From NCBI GenBank assembly GCA_038211505.1, contig JBBQVO010000120.1, positions 1 to 10,011 of the forward strand: DNA of 10,011 bases. Direction: 5' to 3'. This stretch comes from Dehalococcoidia bacterium. GTDB taxonomy: Bacteria; Chloroflexota; Dehalococcoidia; DSTF01; JACRBR01. Under the pieces are notes generated by a model. It had not been told where the DNA came from. It saw nothing but the letters and a program-made list of their open reading frames with translations, and made no database searches. Shown piece by piece: positions 28 through 9,726 of the stretch (positions are counted from its first letter, which is position 1; every line of letters begins with the position of its first letter). The position numbers and the translations under genes were made by a program.

Positions 28-1482
28 TCATCGCTGCGCTTTCGTCGCGCGCGCCGGCTTCGCATCCGCGCCGACCAGCATCGCATTGACCCTCTTACGT
101 GCGCGACGCAGCGCCGCCGTCACCTGCTTCGGCGCCGTGCCGCCGGGCACGTCGCGCGAGCGCACGGACGACATCACGTCGATGCGGCGTGCATCTTCGT
201 CGAACAGCGGCGAGAAGCGGCGCATCTCGTCGAGCGTCAGGCGGTGTAGCTCCATGCCCCTATCTTCGGCATATCGCACGAGCTTGCCGACGGCTTCGTG
301 GGCATCGCGGAACGGGAGGCCTTTGCGGACAAGGTAGTCGGCGAGATCCGTGGCGAGCGAGTAATTTGCGACGGCGGCGATGCGCGCGCGCTTCGCGTCG
401 ATCTCGATGTGCGGGAGCATCGCGGCGAGCACTTCGAGCGTCGACGTGAGGATCTCTTCGGCTTCGAACAGGATCGGCTTGTCCTCTTGCAAATCGCGGT
501 TGTACGACAGCGGCAGGCCCTTGAGCATCGTCAGGATCGCCACAACGCTGCCGATGACGCGCCCGGTGCGGCCGCGCGCCAGCTCGGCGACGTCGGGATT
601 CTTCTTCTGCGGCATGATGCTCGACCCGGTGGCGAAGGCATCGGGCAGGCGGATGAAGGCGAACTCCGCGCTCGACCAGAGCACGAGCTCCTCCGCGAGC
701 CGCGATACGTGGACCATCGCCAGCGCGGCGGCGTTGAGGTAGTCGGCGGCGAAATCGCGATCGGATACGGCATCGATGCTATTCGCGGTGATACCGGCAA
801 AGTCGAGCTCGTCGGCGACCGAAGCGCGGTCGATCGGGTACGGAACGCCGGCGAGAGCGCCGCTGCCGAGCGGCAACTCATCGATCATCTGGAACGCGAA
901 CCCGAAGCGTTTGACGTCGCGCTCGAACATCTCGACGTACGCGAGCATGTGGTGCGCGAAGAGGATCGGCTGCGCGCGCTGCATGTGCGTGTAGCCCGGC
1001 ATCGTCACGTTCTTGTTGGCGTCGGCCAGATCAAGCAACGACGACTGCAGCACGATGAGCCGCGCCATCGCCACGCACGACGCTTGTCGGACGTACATGC
1101 GGAAGTCCGTCGCCACCTGATCGTTGCGCGATCGCGCAGTGTGCAGACGGCCGGCGACGGCGCCGATCTTCGCGCCGAGGCGCACCTCGACGTTCATGTG
1201 CACGTCTTCGAGCTCGGGACGCAGCGTGAAGTCGCCGCGCTCGTATTCGTCGAGGATCTCCTTGAGGCCGCGAACGATCTTGTCCGCGTCGGCTTTCGGG
1301 ATGATGCGCTGGCGGCCGAGCATGCGAGCGTGAGCGATCGACGCCAGCACGTCGTATCGCAGCAGCCGCTCGTCGGCATCAATCGACGATGTGTAGCTTT
1401 CGACGAGGGCGTCCGTCGCCGCGTCGAAGCGTCCGCCCCACGGCTTCGCGCCGTTCGTCGAAGGAGCGGAGGCATCGCTCAT
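28..1482 (-). CDS. argH: Argininosuccinate lyase (ArgH). Likely start is the ATG at 1480-1482 (MSDASAP...KPWGGRF), not the upstream M of the six-frame ORF. Stop is at 28-30.
   Basis: Translation contains the fumarate-lyase/ASL hallmarks: N-terminal WGGRF, TxxSSIMPQKKNPD (GSSIMPQKKNPDVAEL), and full-length collinearity with ArgH (~484 aa). High GC3 coding bias. The ATG at 1480-1482 overlaps the TGA of the upstream gene (ATGA). Confidence 0.9.
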   Translation of the reverse strand: MSDASAPSTNGAKPWGGRFDAATDALVESYTSSIDADERLLRYDVLASIAHARMLGRQRIIPKADADKIVRGLKEILDEYERGDFTLRPELEDVHMNVEVRLGAKIGAVAGRLHTARSRNDQVATDFRMYVRQASCVAMARLIVLQSSLLDLADANKNVTMPGYTHMQRAQPILFAHHMLAYVEMFERDVKRFGFAFQMIDELPLGSGALAGVPYPIDRASVADELDFAGITANSIDAVSDRDFAADYLNAAALAMVHVSRLAEELVLWSSAEFAFIRLPDAFATGSSIMPQKKNPDVAELARGRTGRVIGSVVAILTMLKGLPLSYNRDLQEDKPILFEAEEILTSTLEVLAAMLPHIEIDAKRARIAAVANYSLATDLADYLVRKGLPFRDAHEAVGKLVRYAEDRGMELHRLTLDEMRRFSPLFDEDARRIDVMSSVRSRDVPGGTAPKQVTAALRRARKRVNAMLVGADAKPARATKAQR

Positions 1483-3146
1483 GGGGGCGCCGGCTGCGTC
1501 TTTGCGAGCGCGTCGCTTGCCCCGTGGCGCACCAGCAGATTGAACCACTTGTCCTCCCGGACCTGCACGACGCGGCGGTCGTACTCCGCCGCGAGCCGCG
1601 GGTTGTTGAGCATGTCGACGACGGCCGGGATGAAGACGCGATTCAGGCCCGCGTAGTCCTCGCCCGTCAGCGGCCGCGGCGACAGATCGTCGAACAAGAT
1701 GATGATATCAGGCTGCTGATCGAGCACGTACGCGGAGTCGTATTTCTCGTGGCCAGCGGCGAAGTCGCCGATCTTGATGTCGCGGTGCGCGATATGCTCA
1801 TCGTTGATGCCGAGCATGTCGATCACGGGCAGCTGCGATTCGTAGCCGATGGCGCCGACCGGCACCGCGGCGATGGTCGTCGTGCCGGCGACGTTGCCGC
1901 GCAGCCAGCGGCCGATGTCGGCGCGATCGTCGACCGCGTGACGCTCGCCGGCGATGTTGAGCGCGTCGGTGACCGACGGATGCAACGTGAAGGCGATCGC
2001 GGCGGCGGCGAGGATCATCGCAGCGACGCCGAGCGATCGGCGATTGATGCGCGCGTCGTCGCGAAGCGATGCGATGATCGCGGCCGCGGACGCGACGACG
2101 ATCGCGTAGAACAGCGGCAACACGGGCGCGACGAAGCGGAAGAGCAGCAGCGAATCGCCGCCGACGTAGGCCGTGTACGCGAACCAGGCGACGACCAGCG
2201 CGGCGACGTACGCGCCGGCGGCATGTCGGAGCCGCGGGGTCACGAGCGCGAGCGGCACGAGCAGCAGCAGCCAGCCGCCGTACTGCGACGCGAACGAGAG
2301 CGCGTACTCCAGGCCCCGATTGTACTGATCGATGCCGGAGCCGACCTTGGCGTAGTAGGTGTTCGGGTAGAGCCAGCCATACGTCGCGTACCGCCACCAG
2401 AAGTACGGCACGAACACCGCGGCGAAGCCGGCCGCCCAGACGATGAGGCGCACCACGTCTCCGAGCACACCCATGCGCCGACCGCCACTGCGGGCGCGCG
2501 ATACGACGTCGGCGAGCTTGAAGACGCCCGAGACAGCGAACAGCAACACCCCGTCGGGGCGCGTCATCGCGACGAGCGCCCAGATCGCGCCGGAGATCGG
2601 TGGCGTCCCACGATCGCGCTCGCGGATGTGCAGCAGCACGGCGGCAAGCATCAGCGTCGCAAAGAGCGGCGCTTCGAGGCCGGCGGTCGCCCACAGCGAC
2701 CAGGCGCCGGACGCGGCGAGCAGCAACGCCGCCGCGAGTCCGGCATGTGGCGCGAGATCGTTGTCATCGACGAGGTCGCGCGCGAGCGCGTACGTGCCGG
2801 CGGCGGCGGTGATCGCGAGCCCAAAGCCGAGCCAGCGTCCGGAGACGACGATATCGGCGCAGAAGTCGTGCGCGCCGGCGAGGATCACGACCCAGAGAAA
2901 ATTGGTGTAGCCCTCGACGTGCGCGCCGGGGTTCCAGACGAGGCCGTCGCCGTCCGTGAGATTGCGGGCGTAGCGGTACGAGATGTAGGCGTCGTCGCTG
3001 GTGTAGCGGAAGTAGAAGTACTGAAGCAGCAAGATCGCCGCGGACGCGATGATCGCGGTCGCGGCGTATCGCCCCGTGGTCCGCGCAACGGGCAGCGCTG
3101 CGACGGAGATGCCGAGAACGCCCACGACGAGCCACGGAAAGTTCAT
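1479..3146 (-). CDS. Polytopic membrane glycosyltransferase, GT-C fold, ArnT/PMT-like (GT83/GT39-like), with a ~190-aa C-terminal soluble domain
   Basis: 555-aa ORF with more than 10 predicted hydrophobic helices. First extracytoplasmic loop carries 'SDDAYISYRYARNL', matching the ArnT-type 'DExRYAEIxREM' acidic motif of GT-C transferases. C-terminal ~190 aa are hydrophilic. Stop TGA (1479-1481) overlaps the argH ATG. Antisense ORFs 1389..3179 and 1798..2694 are R/D/G-rich low complexity and rejected. Confidence 0.65.
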   Translation of the reverse strand: MNFPWLVVGVLGISVAALPVARTTGRYAATAIIASAAILLLQYFYFRYTSDDAYISYRYARNLTDGDGLVWNPGAHVEGYTNFLWVVILAGAHDFCADIVVSGRWLGFGLAITAAAGTYALARDLVDDNDLAPHAGLAAALLLAASGAWSLWATAGLEAPLFATLMLAAVLLHIRERDRGTPPISGAIWALVAMTRPDGVLLFAVSGVFKLADVVSRARSGGRRMGVLGDVVRLIVWAAGFAAVFVPYFWWRYATYGWLYPNTYYAKVGSGIDQYNRGLEYALSFASQYGGWLLLLVPLALVTPRLRHAAGAYVAALVVAWFAYTAYVGGDSLLLFRFVAPVLPLFYAIVVASAAAIIASLRDDARINRRSLGVAAMILAAAAIAFTLHPSVTDALNIAGERHAVDDRADIGRWLRGNVAGTTTIAAVPVGAIGYESQLPVIDMLGINDEHIAHRDIKIGDFAAGHEKYDSAYVLDQQPDIIILFDDLSPRPLTGEDYAGLNRVFIPAVVDMLNNPRLAAEYDRRVVQVREDKWFNLLVRHGASDALAKTQPAPP

Positions 3147-3170: not shown

Positions 3171-3836
3171 CTATTGTAATTGCCATTCGGGGCTGGCGCT
3201 CATGTGGAAGTTGTTGAGCTGCAGCCAGTGCAGCTCCTCATACGGCCGCCCCAGCCCGAAACACAGCAGCACCTCGCCGCCTACCGCCAACTGCTCCTGC
3301 GCCCATCGCACGCGCTCCGGCACCGGCGTACGCATATCGTCGGAGAACAGCCGCACGTCGGTGATCGGCAGATCGAGATCATCCTGCCATTGCAGCCGAA
3401 GCCGGCCTCCGGCGTTGATCCTCACGCGCACGGGGTCCGTCGTGCGAACGATGAGCAACGAGCAGCGACCTTTGCCCTTCGGGACGACGAGGTTCGTGCC
3501 CTGCTGTCGCAAGTCCTTGCCGATCGGTGAGAAGTCATCGACAGCGAGGCGACGTAGTCGCGCGATGAAGTCGGGTCCTGACGACGTCTCGACGGGACGA
3601 ATCGATGCGGGATCGAAGCGCACGTCTTCGACTTCGGGCCGCGATTGACGCGGCGACGTGCGTCCAATATCGATCACGCTACGGAGGTCAAGCGGCCCAC
3701 CGCGACTCGCGAGGAGACGAGCGCTAAGGGCAGATGCTGCGACCGGACGAACGCGGCGATCCTTGTCGACATCGATGCCGGCGACGCAGACGTGACCGTC
3801 CCGCATCCGCGTGAGATCGGTGATCAATACCTTCAT
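3171..3836 (-). CDS. Hypothetical protein, 221 aa, beta-rich, no family recognised. Translationally coupled to the DUF488-like gene immediately upstream of it.
   Basis: ATG at 3834-3836 lies 1 nt after the TAG (3838-3840) of the preceding minus-strand gene. Codon usage (GC3-rich) matches neighbours. TAA stop at 3171-3173, 24 nt before the GT-C start. Translation MKVLITDLTRMRDGHVCVAGIDV... has no motif I can assign confidently. Confidence 0.55.
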   Translation of the reverse strand: MKVLITDLTRMRDGHVCVAGIDVDKDRRVRPVAASALSARLLASRGGPLDLRSVIDIGRTSPRQSRPEVEDVRFDPASIRPVETSSGPDFIARLRRLAVDDFSPIGKDLRQQGTNLVVPKGKGRCSLLIVRTTDPVRVRINAGGRLRLQWQDDLDLPITDVRLFSDDMRTPVPERVRWAQEQLAVGGEVLLCFGLGRPYEELHWLQLNNFHMSASPEWQLQ

Positions 3837-3837
3837 G

Positions 3838-4266
3838 CTACAGATGCTCCAGGCTCGCGCCCCACGCGCGCGAAAGCATTTCAGCGACCAGGCGGCGGTG
3901 ACAATGATCGGCCGAGGCCTCGCTGCAGAGCAACGCCGTCTTGAGCTTGTAGGATTGCGGGTTGAGAGCGCCCGGCAGGCTCCGCTCGATCATCAATGCG
4001 AGGAATCCTCGCTCGTAGGCGGCCCAGTCCTTGGTACTTCGGTACTGCTTTAGCAAATCGTCGTTCGGCGCGAGGCGGAGATCGTGCGCGTACGCTATCT
4101 CCGCGCCCGCCAGGAAGAACTCCAGATCGTCGCGCTTCGCGAATCCATCGAGTTGCGATGTGTTGCGTAGACGCACGTCGACGACGCGTTCGACACCGGC
4201 GCCGGTCAGCCGTTCAAAGAAGTGCTGCGCTGAGGTCCGCGTGAAGCCGATCGTCGCGAGTTCCAC
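3838..4266 (-). CDS. DUF488-like family protein (142 aa), uncharacterised conserved family
   Basis: MELATIGFTRTS...VERVVDVRLRNTSQ...GFAKRDDLEFFLAGAEIAYAH...ALLCSEASADHCHRRLVAEML. This matches my recollection of the DUF488 (PF04343) pattern TIG[HY]S...F...L...VDVR..P.S...F...L...GI.Y.H...LG...LLCxE..P..CHR. Conserved Cys/Glu/His are present. Confidence 0.6.
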   Translation of the reverse strand: MELATIGFTRTSAQHFFERLTGAGVERVVDVRLRNTSQLDGFAKRDDLEFFLAGAEIAYAHDLRLAPNDDLLKQYRSTKDWAAYERGFLALMIERSLPGALNPQSYKLKTALLCSEASADHCHRRLVAEMLSRAWGASLEHL

Positions 4267-4817
4267 GTGATGCCTTGCTCAAACGGTCCCGACTGCACGG
4301 CGATCGACTCCTCCGGCATGCACAGCCCATCGCCCCGGATGTGCACGATTTTGGATCGCGGCCAGTCTTGAAGCGAGAGAGCGCGCGCCACGAGCAAGTG
4401 ACGATGACATCCGAGCGGACTCTCTTCGGAGCACATGAGCGCGATCCGTTGCTTGGTCGCCGCTCGCATCAACCGTCGCAGCCCGGCGCGAAACCGCTCA
4501 CTTTCGCTCCACTCGTAGTACAGCACATGACGTTCGGCGTCGTAGAACTGCGAGTTTGTCGGCCTACCGCCCAGCGAGTCACCCATGTACGCGTACCGAA
4601 ACCCGGCGCGCGTTAGAAGCGCCGCGAGCGGTCGGCGACTGAATTGCGGCGCGAAACGTGAGACGGGATGAGAGCGGACATCGACCACGACTTCAACGCG
4701 ATAGGGCATGAGCAGCGCTACGAAAGATTCGAAGGAAATGCTGGAGTGGCCGATCGTGAAGATGACCGGCGAACTGATATCCATACACGCGCCCAGATCG
4801 ACAAGGCTCGCAAACAT
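4206..4817 (-). CDS. DUF488-like family protein, second divergent paralog (~203 aa from the ATG at 4815-4817; alternative starts at 4862 or 4784), with a ~55-aa C-terminal tail
   Basis: ...PVIFTIGHSSISFESFVALLMPYRVEVVVDVRSHPVSRFAPQFSRRPLAALLTRAGFRYAYMGDSLGGRP...ALMCSEESPLGCHRHLLVARAL. Same motif set as the downstream paralog at ~35-40% identity. The ATG at 4817 sits 11 nt after the HAD gene TAG (4829-4831). The 3' end overlaps the next DUF488 gene by 61 nt in another frame. Local GC is lower (~50-58%). Confidence 0.55.
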   Translation of the reverse strand: MFASLVDLGACMDISSPVIFTIGHSSISFESFVALLMPYRVEVVVDVRSHPVSRFAPQFSRRPLAALLTRAGFRYAYMGDSLGGRPTNSQFYDAERHVLYYEWSESERFRAGLRRLMRAATKQRIALMCSEESPLGCHRHLLVARALSLQDWPRSKIVHIRGDGLCMPEESIAVQSGPFEQGITWNSRRSASRGPQRSTSLNG

Positions 4818-4828
4818 ACGTTCTGATT

Positions 4829-5659
4829 CTACTCGAAAATAGGCAGTTCTGTCATCTCCCACAGCGTGTGGATCGTGTATTCGGGCGTGATGCTTTCGTC
4901 GTGTGCGTAGTCGCCGAGGGCGCGGCCGGTCTGTGCTCGCGTTGCAGGCAGATCGGGCGGCACTTCGCCTACCTGCTCTGCTTCGTGCTTCGGATCGGGT
5001 TTGAGGACGACGCGCCAGATCGCCATCATGCCGAGCGCCTGCGACGCCGCGACATCTGCGCGGAGCGAGTCGCCGACCATCACAGTCTCGTTCGCGGCGA
5101 TGTGCATCTCGTCGAGCACATGTTGAAAAATCTGAGCGTGCGGCTTCATGTAGCCGAGATCGCAGGAGACCGCGGTCGATTCGAAGTAGCGGTCAAGGCC
5201 AAGCTCGCGCATTTCCTCGATGAAGCGCGGGCCGCCGAAGACGCGGTTCGTGACACAGCCGAGTCGGTAGCCGTGATCGCGCAGCCAGTCGAGCGTGGCG
5301 AAGGCGTCGTCGAACATCGTCCGGCCGAGCGTCAGCCCGCCGAGATTCCAGGCGTCCCACAATTGCGCGCCCTGCTCGAGCGTCACGTTCAAGCCCATGC
5401 CGTTGGCGATGTCACGGACAACGGAGTTGAAGTCGGGGCTGATGCAGTCGCCCTCGTACGCGGCGCGGTCGGCGCGCTCGACGCCGAGACGGATCTCGCG
5501 GCCGAGGAAGCGCAACTCGCCGTCGAGCGGGATGCCCCACTCCTTCAGCACGCCGCCGATGCGGCTCATCGTTTGCGTGCGAATCTCCATCGCCGGCGGC
5601 AGCTTCGGGAAGTGCCAGAGCGTGTCGCCTAGATCGAACAGGACTGCCTTGATCGCCAT
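4829..5659 (-). CDS. HAD-superfamily (subfamily IA-like) hydrolase/phosphatase
   Basis: All four HAD motifs are present: motif I 'VLFDLGDTLW' (DxD), motif II 'GCVTN', motif III Lys in 'GYMKP', motif IV 'VGDSLRADVAAS'. The ATG at 5657-5659 is preceded by GGAGG (complement of 5666-5670) at 6-nt spacing. The six-frame ORF's first codon is TTG at 5660-5662. Confidence 0.85.
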   Translation of the reverse strand: MAIKAVLFDLGDTLWHFPKLPPAMEIRTQTMSRIGGVLKEWGIPLDGELRFLGREIRLGVERADRAAYEGDCISPDFNSVVRDIANGMGLNVTLEQGAQLWDAWNLGGLTLGRTMFDDAFATLDWLRDHGYRLGCVTNRVFGGPRFIEEMRELGLDRYFESTAVSCDLGYMKPHAQIFQHVLDEMHIAANETVMVGDSLRADVAASQALGMMAIWRVVLKPDPKHEAEQVGEVPPDLPATRAQTGRALGDYAHDESITPEYTIHTLWEMTELPIFE

Positions 5660-5824
5660 CAATCGCCTCCGCCGCGAGGATAGCGAGCGCGCGCGCGACG
5701 GGCCACCACCGCCGCCCGCGCGCCATAGACGCTAGCTCGGAGTGCGATCTATGATCGATCGAGCGGTTACGAATATGTTGCCATCTGCGCGACGAACGTG
5801 ACTGCTGCTGAAAGGAGAGCCGGA
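5660..5824. promoter_or_regulatory. Divergent intergenic region between the HAD operon (-) and the flotillin gene (+). It should hold promoters for both and contains the flotillin RBS AAAGGAGAG (5811-5819).
   Basis: ~165-bp non-coding gap between divergently oriented start codons. Strong Shine-Dalgarno 6 nt before the ATG at 5825. Weak sigma70-like hexamers (TTGCCA 5778-5783, TATGTT 5774-5779) are not convincingly spaced. 8-bp palindrome TCGATCGA at ~5753-5760. Confidence 0.35.
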
Positions 5825-7873
5825 ATGGCTCCGCTCGCAATCCTGATCATCGTGCTTGTCGTGCTGGTCGTGTTTCTGTTTCTCGTGTTCTTCAGCGGCA
5901 TGCTGGTGAACGTCGGCGGCCAGCAGATCGGCGTTATCGAGCGCCGATTCTGGGGTAAGTCGCTGCCGGAGTCGCGCGTCGTCGCCATGCGCGGCGAGAT
6001 CGGCATCCAGGCGCGCGTGTTACAGCCGGGTCTCGCGATTTTGCCGCCGTTCATCTACAAGGTCTCCAAGGACGACATGCTCGTCATCGCCGAAGATGAA
6101 GTCGGGCTGCTGGAGTGCATCGACGGCCGGCCCCTCGAGCCGGGCCACATCTTCGGACGGCACGTCGAGGGCCACGATTCGTTTCAGGACGGCGAAGGCT
6201 TCCTGCGCAACGGGGGCCAGAAGGGGCCGCAGGTCGATATCCTCGCGCCCGGCAAGTATCGCATCAACACGTATCTCTTCCGCGTGCGGACGGAGCCAGC
6301 GCTCATCGTGACGCAGGGACAGGTTGGCGTCGTCAGCTCGCGCGACGGCGATCCGATGGCGTCCGGGCGTCTGCTGGCTCAGAAGGTCGACGGCCACCTG
6401 GGGTTCCAGAACGGCGAGGCGTTCTTCCAGGCGGGCGGCCAGCGCGGACCGCAGATCGAGGTGATCTTCCCCGGCCGCTACCGGATCAACATGGATCTCT
6501 TCAACGTCGAGGTGCAGCCGGCGACGATCGTGCAGGCGAACCAGGTCGGTCTCGTGACGGCCAAGGACGGCTCTCCCCTGCCCGGCGGCGAGCTCGTCGC
6601 CGCGACGGTGCCGAATCACAACGACTTTCAGGACGCGTCGGCGTTTCTCTCGAACGGCGGACAGCGCGGGCCGCAGTACGATCTGCTGAAGCCGGGCACG
6701 TACTACATCAACCCGCTGATGTTCGATGTGAAGCTCGATAACGTCGCCGTCGTCCAGCGCGGCGAGGTGGCGGTGCTGGTGTCGAACGTCGGCAAGGAGC
6801 CGGAGGACATTCCGATGTCGGAGCGGCTTGCCGGCAAGGAACGTTATGTCGTGCCAGCCGGCTTCCGTGGCATCCAGGCCGAGGTCGCCGGTCCCGGCGT
6901 CTATTATCTGAACCGCTGGGCGTACATCGCCTACATCATCCCGACCACCAACCTGACGATCGACTGGGCCGAGGAGAGCGGCACCGCGCCTGATGACGAC
7001 GGCGCCGGCGGCAACACGAACGCCAGCGGCGGCATCCGGCGCGCCCAGCTCTTCAACCCGCTGGCCGTCATCAGCCGCGAAGGCTTCGAGATGCGGGTCG
7101 GCGTCAAAGTCGTCATCCGTGTGCGGCCGGAGCAGGCGCCGCTGATGGTGGCGAAGATCGGCTCGATCGAGAACCTCATCGACCATGTCGTGCACCCGAT
7201 GATCGACTCGTCGTTCCGCAACCAGGCGTCGTCGTCGGAAGCGATGAACTTCATGCAGGATCGCGCCGATGAGCAGGCGAAAGCGGAAGCGCGTACGCGC
7301 GAGGAACTCGAGAAGTACCACGTCGAATGCGTCTCGGTGTTAATCTCGCAGATCATCCTGCCGCAGGAACTGATGGAGATTCACACGCGGCGCGTCATCG
7401 CCGCGCAGCAGCAGGACATGTTCGTCGAGCAGCAGAAGTCGGAAGAGAAGCGCATCGACACGGAGAACACGCGCGCCAAAGCCGACAAGCAGCCGGAGCT
7501 CGTGGCGGCGCAGATCTCGGTGCAGGTAGCCGAGCAGACAAAACAGCGCACGATCCTCGAAGCCGAGGGCCGCGCGCGTGGCATCGAAGTCGAAGGCGAG
7601 GCCGAGGGCACACGGATTCTCGCCATCGGCACCGCCACGGCGGAGGCGTACGAGAAGCAGGTCGCAGCCGTCGGCCAGGCGAATCTCGCCGGCATCGAGG
7701 TAACGAAGTCGATCGCTGGTGCCGGGCTGAAGATCACGCCCGAGATCAACATCGCCGGCGGCGACAACGGTGGCGGCAATATTTTCTCGGCGTTCATTGC
7801 CCAGTTGATGTCGCAGAACCGCAACGGCGGCGCCGGCACGAACGGCAGCGCCGGGACGCCGCCGCAGACGTAG
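5825..7873 (+). CDS. SPFH (band-7)/flotillin-family membrane protein, 683 aa, with an expanded internal repeat region
   Basis: N-terminal hydrophobic hairpin (LAILIIVLVVLVVFLFLVFF). SPFH start motifs 'VNVGGQQIGVIERRFWGK' and 'LQPGLAILPPFIYKV' match stomatin's 'VDEYERAVIFRLGR' and 'GPGLFFIIPIFEKAV'. SPFH C-terminal half 'REELEKYHVECVSVLISQIILPQELMEIHTRRVIAAQQ'. Flotillin-like Glu/Ala-rich tail 'EAEGRARGIEVEGEAEGTRILAIGTATAEAYEKQ', ending IAGGDNGGGN. Start chosen at the ATG at 5825 (SD AAAGGAGAG), not the GTG at 5798. TAG at 7871-7873. Confidence 0.75.
   Translation: MAPLAILIIVLVVLVVFLFLVFFSGMLVNVGGQQIGVIERRFWGKSLPESRVVAMRGEIGIQARVLQPGLAILPPFIYKVSKDDMLVIAEDEVGLLECIDGRPLEPGHIFGRHVEGHDSFQDGEGFLRNGGQKGPQVDILAPGKYRINTYLFRVRTEPALIVTQGQVGVVSSRDGDPMASGRLLAQKVDGHLGFQNGEAFFQAGGQRGPQIEVIFPGRYRINMDLFNVEVQPATIVQANQVGLVTAKDGSPLPGGELVAATVPNHNDFQDASAFLSNGGQRGPQYDLLKPGTYYINPLMFDVKLDNVAVVQRGEVAVLVSNVGKEPEDIPMSERLAGKERYVVPAGFRGIQAEVAGPGVYYLNRWAYIAYIIPTTNLTIDWAEESGTAPDDDGAGGNTNASGGIRRAQLFNPLAVISREGFEMRVGVKVVIRVRPEQAPLMVAKIGSIENLIDHVVHPMIDSSFRNQASSSEAMNFMQDRADEQAKAEARTREELEKYHVECVSVLISQIILPQELMEIHTRRVIAAQQQDMFVEQQKSEEKRIDTENTRAKADKQPELVAAQISVQVAEQTKQRTILEAEGRARGIEVEGEAEGTRILAIGTATAEAYEKQVAAVGQANLAGIEVTKSIAGAGLKITPEINIAGGDNGGGNIFSAFIAQLMSQNRNGGAGTNGSAGTPPQT
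6182..6847 (+). repeat. Intragenic tandem repeats: three clear ~74-aa (222-nt) protein-level repeats (R1 6182-6403, R2 6404-6625, R3 6626-6847) inside the flotillin-like gene. Degenerate copies flank them (R0 ~5993-6181, R4 ~6848-6967).
   Basis: Aligned units: FQDGEGFLRNGGQKGPQVDILAPGKYRINTYLFRVRTEPALIVTQGQVGVVSSRDGDP / FQNGEAFFQAGGQRGPQIEVIFPGRYRINMDLFNVEVQPATIVQANQVGLVTAKDGSP / FQDASAFLSNGGQRGPQYDLLKPGTYYINPLMFDVKLDNVAVVQRGEVAVLVSNVGKEP. DNA-level identity is only moderate, so this is an old duplication. Confidence 0.7.
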
Positions 7874-7938: not shown

Positions 7939-8029
7939 CTCACCCCGGCCTTCGGCCACCCCTCTCCCTCAAGGGGAGAGGGGATCGTTTCGGCGATTTG
8001 AAGCTGAGACCGGGAGACTTTCAAGACAA
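7939..8029 (+). repeat. Intergenic structured repeat element, copy A (~90 nt), between the flotillin stop and the SGL start
   Basis: 'ctcaccccggccttcggccacccctctccc-tcaag-gggagaggggatcgtttcggcga' followed by '...gaagctg...agactttcaagacaa'. It shares ~80% identity over ~90 nt with 9615-9705, including a 29-nt exact block and a 22-nt exact block. Confidence 0.7.
7947..7996 (+). terminator. Candidate intrinsic-terminator-like hairpin pair: GGCC-UUC-GGCC mini-hairpin (7947-7957) plus a 10-bp stem with 5-nt loop (7959-7983), followed by AUCGUUUCGGCGA
   Basis: Perfect 10-bp GC-rich stem cccctctccc/gggagagggg with loop tcaag, 66 nt after the flotillin stop. The U-tract is weak (UUU), as is common for high-GC terminators. 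Confidence 0.35.
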
Positions 8030-8914: not shown

Positions 8915-9051
8915 GCGGCGCGATGATGTCCATTCGTCGTGATGCGTCCGCGGCCCATCGCGCATGACGCCTCCGACAATGAGCGCTTCGTCGCCGCGCG
9001 GTAGTGCGAATGTACCTTGGCGATTCCTCGCCCGTCGCCGACTATGGTGGC

Positions 9052-9501
9052 ATGATTCAAGCTCACGCCGCGCTTCCGACTCATCGCCGATCATTGTGGG
9101 GCGCGCTCCTGCTGGAGATCGCGCCCGTGTTGGCGCCGGTCCTCGCGATCTCCGCGCTCGTCGGCCTGCTCTTGCTCGATCCGCCGTTGGTGGTCGCGCA
9201 GGTGCTCGTGACGCCGTTGTTCTTCGCGTGCTTCCTGTTCTTCCTGTCGGGGATGGGCTGGCTGTACGCCGGGGAACAGCGGATCGGGATCGCGTTGATG
9301 ATCGGACGCGGAGTCGCGGCGATGGCGCTCGCTTCGTTTTCGTTTCGCGCGCTGGGCGAAATCGACTGCGGTCGGAGTTGCGCGGGGCCGACCGATGTCG
9401 CGATTATCCCGCTGCTCTTCGTCGCCGTCGGCGTGCCGATCGTGTCGACGATCATGCTGGGCGTCGCGATGGTCGCCCAACGCTGGCGAGTAGACGGCTG
9501 A
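9052..9501 (+). CDS. Small hypothetical integral membrane protein (~4 TM helices). Start is uncertain: ATG 9052, ATG 9010 or GTG 9004.
   Basis: Four hydrophobic segments (LWGALLLEIAPVLAPVLAISALVGLLLL; VLVTPLFFACFLFFLSGMGWLY; IGIALMIGRGVAAMALASF; VAIIPLLFVAVGVPIVSTIMLGVAMV). High GC3 codon usage consistent with coding. No family recognised. The antisense ORF 9091..9636 is charged low-complexity and rejected. Confidence 0.5.
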   Translation: MIQAHAALPTHRRSLWGALLLEIAPVLAPVLAISALVGLLLLDPPLVVAQVLVTPLFFACFLFFLSGMGWLYAGEQRIGIALMIGRGVAAMALASFSFRALGEIDCGRSCAGPTDVAIIPLLFVAVGVPIVSTIMLGVAMVAQRWRVDG

Positions 9502-9614: not shown

Positions 9615-9705
9615 CCTCACCCCGGCCTTCGGCCACCCCTCTCCACGTTGTGGAGAGGGGATCGTTTCGGCGAGGGGAAGCTGGCGCGAAGAGACATTCA
9701 AGGCA
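9615..9705 (+). repeat. Intergenic structured repeat element, copy B (~90 nt), in the convergent gap between the membrane-protein gene and the right-edge minus-strand gene
   Basis: 'ctcaccccggccttcggccacccctctcca-cgttg-tggagaggggatcgtttcggcga' followed by '...gaagctg...agacattcaaggcaa'. Same orientation and same two-hairpin core as copy A. Confidence 0.7.
9623..9672 (+). terminator. Candidate (possibly bidirectional) terminator-like hairpin pair: GGCC-UUC-GGCC (9623-9633) plus a 10-bp stem with 5-nt loop (9635-9659), followed by AUCGUUUCGGCGA
   Basis: Stem cccctctcca/tggagagggg with loop cgttg. Located 114-171 nt downstream of the plus-strand stop at 9501 and 55-104 nt downstream of the minus-strand stop at 9727. 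Confidence 0.35.
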
Positions 9706-9726
9706 ACGCCGGGGAGAGTCGAAGGT

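Follow-up and report, generated by a model that had tools for sequence, protein, structure and literature searches.

Tandem copies of the SPFH1 subdomain in a widespread family of bacterial SPFH proteins with a predicted vault-like build

A gene on a short contig of a Dehalococcoidia bacterium (assembly GCA_038211505.1, contig JBBQVO010000120.1) raises the question of what a bacterial SPFH protein is building when it carries five successive copies of a small beta-rich unit ahead of its core. The stretch analysed here, 10,011 nt long and referred to below as the window, encodes this protein on the plus strand, and a first-pass annotation had described the product as a flotillin with tandem repeats inserted within its SPFH domain. 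The protein belongs to the SPFH/Band 7 superfamily, its repeats can be traced by sequence comparison to its own SPFH1 subdomain, and the predicted monomer has the major vault protein (MVP) blueprint with a transmembrane helix at the N-terminus. We consider it probable, at about 60%, that the protein is membrane-anchored and that its reiterated SPFH1 modules would allow it to assemble into a tall "half-vault" cage on the cytoplasmic face of the membrane.

The domain architecture is near certain. The parts of the gene are listed below by window coordinates, all on the plus strand, with amino acid (aa) positions in the protein and, where given, the predicted local distance difference test score (pLDDT) of the structural model.

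5825-7873, plus strand: whole gene of the multi-repeat SPFH protein, 682 aa
5828-5902, plus strand: predicted N-terminal transmembrane helix, aa 2-26 (pLDDT >90; Kyte-Doolittle mean 3.77)
5903-6085, plus strand: unit U1, aa 27-87, a divergent SPFH1-like beta module without the helix insert, recognised by self-BLASTP, the model and the profiles
6086-6307, plus strand: unit U2, aa 88-161, strong 74-aa repeat (121.8 bits)
6308-6529, plus strand: unit U3, aa 162-235, strong 74-aa repeat (115.5 bits)
6530-6751, plus strand: unit U4, aa 236-309, strong 74-aa repeat (119.0 bits)
6182-6235, 6404-6457 and 6626-6679, plus strand: inserts of the three strong units, aa 120-137, 194-211 and 268-285
6752-6973, plus strand: unit U5, aa 310-383, divergent last unit, the SPFH1 subdomain contiguous with the SPFH core
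6974-7039, plus strand: Gly/Asp-rich loop, aa 384-405, of low confidence (pLDDT <50 at 391-404), variable and without a family consensus
7040-7363, plus strand: SPFH alpha/beta core (SPFH2, the "shoulder"), aa 406-513
7364-7717, plus strand: long predicted helices rich in Glu, Ala and Gln, aa 514-571 and 582-631, at the position of the coiled-coil or cap-helix region of SPFH cages and MVP
7718-7870, plus strand: C-terminal tail, aa 632-682, with a conserved KITP(D/E)-x-x-V-GG motif and a disordered Gly/Asn-rich end

The repeat units and the family that carries them

Segment-wise self-BLASTP of the protein found aa 116-190 and 190-264 to be 50% identical (E 1e-26), and either of these segments shares 36-47% identity with aa 265-338 (E 1e-14 to 1e-18). 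The unit nearest the N-terminus, aa 57-116, was recovered with E-values of 1e-5 to 1e-9, and the unit at aa 339-394 matched two of the strong units at E 2e-4 to 1e-3, its match to the third being not significant (E 1.4). The five units, with boundaries placed in the structural register given above, were also excised from the family alignment of 75 sequences for a comparison of profile against profile. U2, U3 and U4 match one another with probabilities of 99.9-100% (E 1e-32 to 1e-40), U5 matches U4 at 97% (E 3e-11) and U3 at 96% (E 1e-8), and U1 matches U2 at 93% (E 3e-7), U4 at 90% and U5 at 88%. Since these matches link the central, last and first units, all five are, on the profile evidence, mutually homologous. 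The array thus consists of three strong units with a period of 74 aa and two divergent units that flank them, which is the layout that the first-pass annotation had proposed (three well-conserved and two degenerate copies of a unit of about 74 aa); its suspicion of significant internal repeats is borne out by pairwise E-values down to 1e-26, and its repeat consensus, FQxGxxFxxxGGQRGPQ...LxPGxYRIN...GQVGVV..DG.P, agrees with that of the family.

The most conserved feature of the repeat is an insert of about 20 aa, FQ(D/N)GxxFxxxGGQ(R/K)GPQ, which is nearly invariant in the three strong units and is modelled as a short helix and a loop. It is found neither in U1 and U5 nor in the prohibitin N-terminal strands with which U5 aligns.

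An artefact of chance or composition in a high-GC gene, or an assembly error, might be suspected in a window of about 65% G+C on a 10-kb contig. The pairwise E-values, the profile E-values down to 1e-40 and the conservation of the same five-unit layout in hundreds of independent assemblies from several phyla refute this reading, the probability of which is practically nil.

The nature of the unit became apparent from its last copy. The sole Pfam match of the protein at E up to 1 is Band_7 (PF01145), at aa 346-540 with 63.4 bits (cut-off 23.6; E 3.7e-17), and this match enters the profile at position 19, inside U5. In a comparison of the family profile with PDB sequences, U5 (ERYVVPxGYRGIQxEVAGPGxYYLN...) aligns to the N-terminal strands of prohibitin-1. 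The N-terminal beta subdomain of the SPFH domain is named SPFH1 in the cryo-EM literature (PMC12624060). Because the last unit belongs to the Band_7 match and aligns to the prohibitin strands, U5 is best read as the ordinary SPFH1 subdomain of the protein and U1-U4 as extra tandem copies of it. The first-pass annotation had anticipated that the unit reiterates the N-terminal beta segment of the SPFH fold, and this is supported; its view of the repeats as inserted within the SPFH domain is right insofar as they lie upstream of the SPFH helical half, and has to be amended insofar as they represent a tandem duplication of the first subdomain and not a foreign insertion. The 74-aa repeat itself has no significant family match in the Pfam or NCBIfam copies searched, and NCBIfam has no family for the protein.

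Clustered at 90% identity, the relatives of the protein number more than 3,600. Lengths of 660-700 aa and an origin in Chloroflexota/Dehalococcoidia metagenomes characterise the nearest 120, and a scan of one genome per species gave 270 loci. Bacteroidota, Ignavibacteriota, Desulfobacterota (Syntrophales/Desulfonema), Acidobacteriota and Bacillota have full-length homologues that are 54-57% identical, so that close homologues are present in at least six phyla, Chloroflexota included. When a 74-position profile of the unit was searched against 1.84 billion representatives (50% identity clusters), it matched 1,289 proteins at E <=1e-3, 719 at 1e-10 and 156 at 1e-30, with 2 to 14 matched stretches per protein. 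Band_7 follows the units in 53 of 57 diverse carriers, and 13 of the 57 end in a C-terminal VWA domain. The unit is therefore a domain present in more than 1,000 protein clusters that carries no annotation. The names given to relatives in their source records ("SPFH domain-containing protein", "Band 7 domain-containing protein", YqiK, HflC or "hypothetical") never mention repeats or vaults. Whether the architecture is common and already annotated, a point left for checking by the first-pass annotation, can accordingly be answered in two parts, the architecture being common, with thousands of homologues, and the repeat itself being unannotated.

Copy number varies widely within the family. Geomonas, Geobacter, Chitinilyticum and Paludibacterium encode proteins of 820-850 aa with five strong units, and cyanobacterial proteins of 1,638-1,802 aa have 11-13 (13-14 stretches in the library search). 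The longest of these, P0121 (NET58509.1, 1802 aa), is from the filamentous cyanobacterium Symploca sp. SIO2E6 and is named only "VWA domain-containing protein"; other very long relatives are P0122 (1793 aa) and P0123 (1638 aa). Both P0121 and P0123 bear a transmembrane segment and continue with Band_7 and then a C-terminal VWA domain.

Comparison of individual units gives some insight into how the array evolves. For each strong unit of the window protein, the best counterpart is the unit that occupies its position in a homologue of 56% identity; such pairs are 57-69% identical, as against 42-43% for the strong units among themselves. In proteins with six or seven units the added copies duplicate the first strong unit and are 61-70% identical to one another, while the two units nearest the SPFH core remain orthologous; in the long cyanobacterial proteins, units of a single chain are in many cases 60-78% identical (up to 74% in P0121 and 58% in P0123). 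As the extra copies derive from the first strong unit and the core-proximal units stay orthologous, the comparisons indicate that the ends of the array are stable and that its middle grows by tandem duplication.

Predicted monomer and comparison with the vault protein

The structure was predicted with AlphaFold2 on the 75-sequence alignment, which included relatives at 35-60% identity from a second homologue search. The model has a mean pLDDT of 81.1 and a predicted TM-score (pTM) of 0.65, with the repeat region mostly above 90. An earlier run on 49 close homologues (72-87% identity) reached a mean pLDDT of 52 and was excluded from the fold searches. From the N-terminus, the model shows the transmembrane helix (aa 2-26), five small beta modules in a row, the alpha/beta core (aa 406-513), helices and a disordered tail. 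The SPFH alpha/beta fold is thus present in the model, and the two other hallmarks of the superfamily, an N-terminal anchor and C-terminal coiled-coil helices, are both predicted, the former with support from hydropathy. When the family profile is compared with the PDB, the long helices are aligned to the helical parts of prohibitin, HflC and erlin. The helical half of the SPFH domain and the Glu/Ala-rich helical tail, which had been placed downstream of the repeats on first inspection, are both seen there in the model.

A Foldseek search of the model against the PDB returned MVP for all of its top eight matches (E 1.9e-14 to 6e-12, about 740-840 aligned columns), the entries including 9r86 (E 1.9e-14), 9z4w, 6bp7, 9mxv, 4hl8 and 4v60. 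Prohibitin (1e-11) ranked below MVP, followed by erlin, stomatin, HflK/C and flotillin (6e-7). The R1-R7 fragment of MVP, which lacks the SPFH domain (3gf5_B), is matched in its own right at E 1.9e-6, and the modelled repeat stack superposes on R1-R7. Tandem MVP-type beta repeats N-terminal to the shoulder are therefore present at the level of fold in the predicted monomer, which appears to have the MVP blueprint with a transmembrane helix at its N-terminus. The first-pass annotation had not recognised a multi-blade reiteration of the SPFH beta-sheet as a described architecture; MVP has that blueprint, and a study of archaeal proteomes that used ECOD places the N-terminal subdomain found in ordinary SPFH proteins in the "MVP repeat" group, and in its account eukaryotic MVP has this architecture with eight copies in tandem (PMC13607799). 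This assignment fits the SPFH1 origin of the repeats deduced here from sequence.

MVP (PDB 4V60, 4HL8 and 9R86; R1-R7 fragment 3GF5) has, like the modelled window protein, reiterated beta modules ahead of an SPFH shoulder, and its long cap helix corresponds in position to the predicted helices. The two differ in that MVP is eukaryotic and the window protein bacterial, in that MVP has nine units and the window protein five, and in the lack of detectable sequence homology in the repeats and shoulder. The N-termini also differ, a transmembrane helix standing directly before the first unit of the window protein, whereas MVP is soluble and its halves are joined through their N-termini. The units here measure 74 aa with their helix/loop insert, and those of MVP, reportedly about 55 aa long, would at that length be too short to hold an insert of about 20 aa. 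The vault half-shell is a 39-fold assembly with vault RNA, TEP1 and PARP4, and genes for such partners were not seen. As to the cap helix, long helices are predicted, and a C-terminal segment gives a weak match to the MVP cap-ring that is described below.

The possibility was considered that the window protein is a true MVP orthologue or of the direct ancestral type, with array, shoulder and cap helix inherited together from a multi-repeat ancestor in common with eukaryotic MVP. No full-length structure matches better than MVP, the R1-R7 stack of which superposes on the modelled repeats, and among the bacterial MVP homologues in the literature there is a Chloroflexota band 7 protein (PMC3762200). 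The sequence tests gave little in its favour. Pfam Vault, Vault_2-4 and MVP_shoulder matched neither the window protein nor 57 diverse relatives, and hhalign of the family profile against human MVP (query sequence checked against the PDB and identical over 1-851) gave a probability of 2%. Unit profiles compared with the nine MVP repeats yielded nothing significant; the best alignment placed the short shared motif PGxYxIN..V onto MVP 148-167 (GPGTYIPRKEVEVV) at E 0.04. A tetrapod MVP profile, which is shallow, found no match in the repeats or the shoulder and aligned only with aa 607-656 (7643-7792), at MVP 793-844 in the cap-ring region, with a probability of 43% and E 2.4e-4; this is the equivalent position, and the match is not significant by itself.

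Given these negative or marginal results, the resemblance to MVP is one of fold and architecture. Furthermore, repeat number in the family is very labile and grows by recent internal duplication, for which independent expansion is a simpler account than a shared array, and the transmembrane helix occupies the end at which MVP halves dimerise. Orthology with MVP is thus improbable.

Bacterial "MVP homologues" were described for a few taxa, including Herpetosiphon (Chloroflexota; band 7 protein A9AUD4; Daly 2013, PMC3762200), and in a further report (Sokolskyi 2019, bioRxiv 10.1101/872010). The literature also contains phage MVP-like proteins (bioRxiv 10.1101/2023.11.10.566534), a five-repeat MVP from Asgard (PMC12962969) and, from archaea, SPFH proteins with a single repeat that are termed "compact MVP" (PMC13607799). 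The bacterial, Asgard and compact proteins share with the present family one or more repeats, an SPFH/Band 7 shoulder and a helical tail; they come from few organisms, were found by their similarity to MVP, and none is described with a transmembrane anchor. Judged by those descriptions, the family reported here is set apart by the lack of an MVP sequence match, a hydrophobic N-terminal segment in most of the relatives examined, its own 74-aa signature and its very wide distribution. SPFH cages, and MVP as an SPFH complex, are treated in recent work (PMC12624060, PMC13100048, PMC13607799), and "MVP domains" are called unique to the vault in a 2026 paper (PMC13100048). A 2009 classification of prokaryotic SPFH proteins makes no mention of such repeats, and in the literature searched, which covered few subscription-journal papers, no description was found of a widespread, transmembrane-anchored SPFH family with a variable-number repeat derived from SPFH1.

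Membrane orientation, genomic context and the proposed cage

Orientation was assessed through charge statistics in 298 relatives of at least 550 aa that have a hydrophobic segment (in the first 60 residues in 92% of them, and within 300 in all). The 15 residues flanking the helix contain on average 0.16 lysines plus arginines before it and 1.78 after it, and the window protein has zero charged residues before its helix. By the positive-inside rule, this asymmetry points to an N-out orientation in which the bulk of the protein would be cytoplasmic.

About 17 of the examined representatives (among them P0222, P0229, P0238, P0212, P0225, P0246, P0251 and P0256) have no hydrophobic N-terminal segment; most of these begin at the first unit, and a few look truncated at the N-terminus. 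Two that were examined in full carry C-terminal fusions, one of them with a P-loop ATPase motif. These relatives may be soluble, in which case they would be closer in design to the free vault.

HflK/C and the prohibitins face outward (PMC12624060), and by analogy with them the repeats could instead form an extracytoplasmic stalk or binding array, for example for cell wall or a ligand. In several relatives the CshA adhesin repeat model is matched weakly and cumulatively, and a peptidoglycan-binding domain is present in one, which would suit such a role. The CshA matches contain no individually significant stretch, however, the charge asymmetry favours a cytoplasmic bulk, and soluble members, some of them possibly truncated, would be easier to reconcile with a cytoplasmic protein. 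An outward-facing protein is, for these reasons, rather improbable, and the cytoplasmic orientation is preferred.

The gene neighbourhood offered few leads. No NfeD gene was found next to the SPFH gene in the window, as the first-pass annotation had remarked, nor among the adjacent genes in 83 related loci, although a partner may lie elsewhere in the genome. Synteny is clade-local and confined to close relatives, for example with DnaX, or with an F420H2 quinone reductase and a TetR gene. PADLOC gave no defence-system match for the window protein and one marginal mad8 match (E 0.0011), in a relative with a P-loop fusion. Relatives at 34-53% identity are encoded at only eight IMG/VR loci (L084-L091), a number that gives no sign of phage association, and these eight contigs may be the host flanks of prophages.

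These results also bear on the flotillin label. The protein could be an ordinary bacterial flotillin of the FloT/YqiK type, a microdomain scaffold in which the repeats are a passive, lineage-specific spacer without geometric effect. FloT/YuaG and YqiK do have in common with it an N-terminal anchor, an SPFH domain, a Glu/Ala-rich helical tail and a predicted cytoplasmic bulk, and some automated annotations label homologues YqiK. Unlike them, the window protein has no Pfam Flot match, no NfeD (YuaF/YqiJ) neighbour and multiple SPFH1 modules, and in the comparison of the family profile with the PDB it is prohibitins that are matched at E 7e-4, as against E 0.33 for flotillin-2. The units are, moreover, conserved and positionally orthologous across phyla, with invariant motifs, which is unexpected for a passive spacer. 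We therefore regard an ordinary flotillin as unlikely and do not retain the label.

Of the canonical membrane SPFH cages, HflK/C, prohibitin 1/2, erlin 1/2, stomatin and QmcA each have one SPFH1 module, as against five in the window protein and 2-14 in its relatives, and similarity to any solved member of this group is marginal, the best E being the 7e-4 for prohibitins. Oligomerisation, cage formation and cellular role are inferred here by analogy with these complexes and with the vault, and orientation from the charge statistics. Many copies of the protein would pack side by side, as in the solved SPFH cages and the vault, so that the transmembrane helices would form a ring in the membrane, the five stacked modules the wall of a barrel, and the SPFH cores its shoulder, and the helices together with the conserved C-terminal KITP(D/E)..V.GG segment would close the cap. 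The outcome would be a tall half-vault that encloses a patch of membrane on its cytoplasmic face. The four extra modules might add very roughly 9 nm of wall, judged by the dimensions of the vault, and in relatives the copy number, from 2 to 14, would set wall height. The idea that the protein could form an extended membrane-proximal scaffold, put forward in the first-pass annotation, accords with this most plausible reading.

Several observations weigh against the half-vault cage. The tests of the repeat region against MVP at the sequence level failed, and the MVP-like build may have come about in parallel, by expansion in an SPFH ancestor with one repeat, and not by descent from a shared array. 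The conserved insert of about 20 aa could make lateral packing differ from that of MVP, and the structural evidence is that of a predicted monomer. The topology assignment, for its part, is drawn only from the positive-inside rule, and across the 83 related loci no conserved neighbour gene of any kind was found that might give a clue to function.

SPFH proteins are now known as membrane cages, among which the vault, cytosolic and closed, is regarded as an exception. The origin of MVP domains and the function of the vault are long-standing questions, and the present family is relevant to the vault's origin. As a naturally occurring intermediate, it combines the anchor of an ordinary SPFH cage, a predicted vault-like stack of modules, and modules copied from its own SPFH1. 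We put forward, as a tentative and rather doubtful extension, that bacteria have membrane-anchored half-vaults, closed cages on the cytoplasmic face whose height is set by the number of modules, and that the members apparently lacking an anchor come nearest, among prokaryotes, to the free vault, as its analogues or even its relatives. The family would then give a direct view of how an ordinary SPFH cage turns into a vault-type shell, since sequence comparison links the array to the protein's own SPFH1. The natural variants with 2-14 modules also provide a tractable bacterial system for studying how module number relates to cage shape.

Expression signals and neighbouring genes

The open reading frame list starts the SPFH gene at GTG 5798. 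The sequence reads AGGAG 7 nt 5' of ATG 5825, and the N-termini of homologues align to MAPLAIL..., that is, to the ATG start. Because of this spacing and of the homologue N-termini, ATG 5825 is the preferred start over GTG 5798, in agreement with the gene coordinates of the first-pass annotation. The SPFH gene is separated from a divergent HAD-hydrolase gene by 162 nt, within which there is a candidate sigma-70-like promoter; one such match was found, as compared with 0.3 expected in shuffled sequence.

5726-5755, plus strand: sigma-70-like promoter candidate, TAGACG-18-TATGAT, a consensus match only
5813-5817, plus strand: Shine-Dalgarno sequence AGGAG

The stop codon of the SPFH gene is at 7871-7873. 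The gene stands alone, and its downstream neighbour encodes an SMP-30/gluconolactonase-type protein. A 91-nt direct repeat occurs at 7939-8029 and 9616-9706 (81% identity), both copies being intergenic; the first starts 66 nt past the SPFH stop and the second follows a small membrane open reading frame at 9004-9501. Each copy contains a hairpin, CCCCTCTCC(n)GGAGAGGGG. Rfam had no match for this repeat or anywhere else in the window, and the element looks like a repetitive extragenic palindromic (REP) or miniature inverted-repeat transposable element (MITE)-like sequence, or a shared terminator.

On the minus strand, 3171-4862 holds three consecutive genes, for a Dual-OB protein (DuOB, PF22557; 3171-3836) and for a pair of DUF488 proteins (3838-4266 and 4206-4862). 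The former of this pair matches the "active DUF488-N3" subclade. The trio may be a small nucleic-acid-related module. Also on the minus strand, 1479-3146 encodes a polytopic membrane protein of 555 aa, with no Pfam match at E <=0.001, and this open reading frame overlaps the end of the argininosuccinate lyase gene by about 70 nt.

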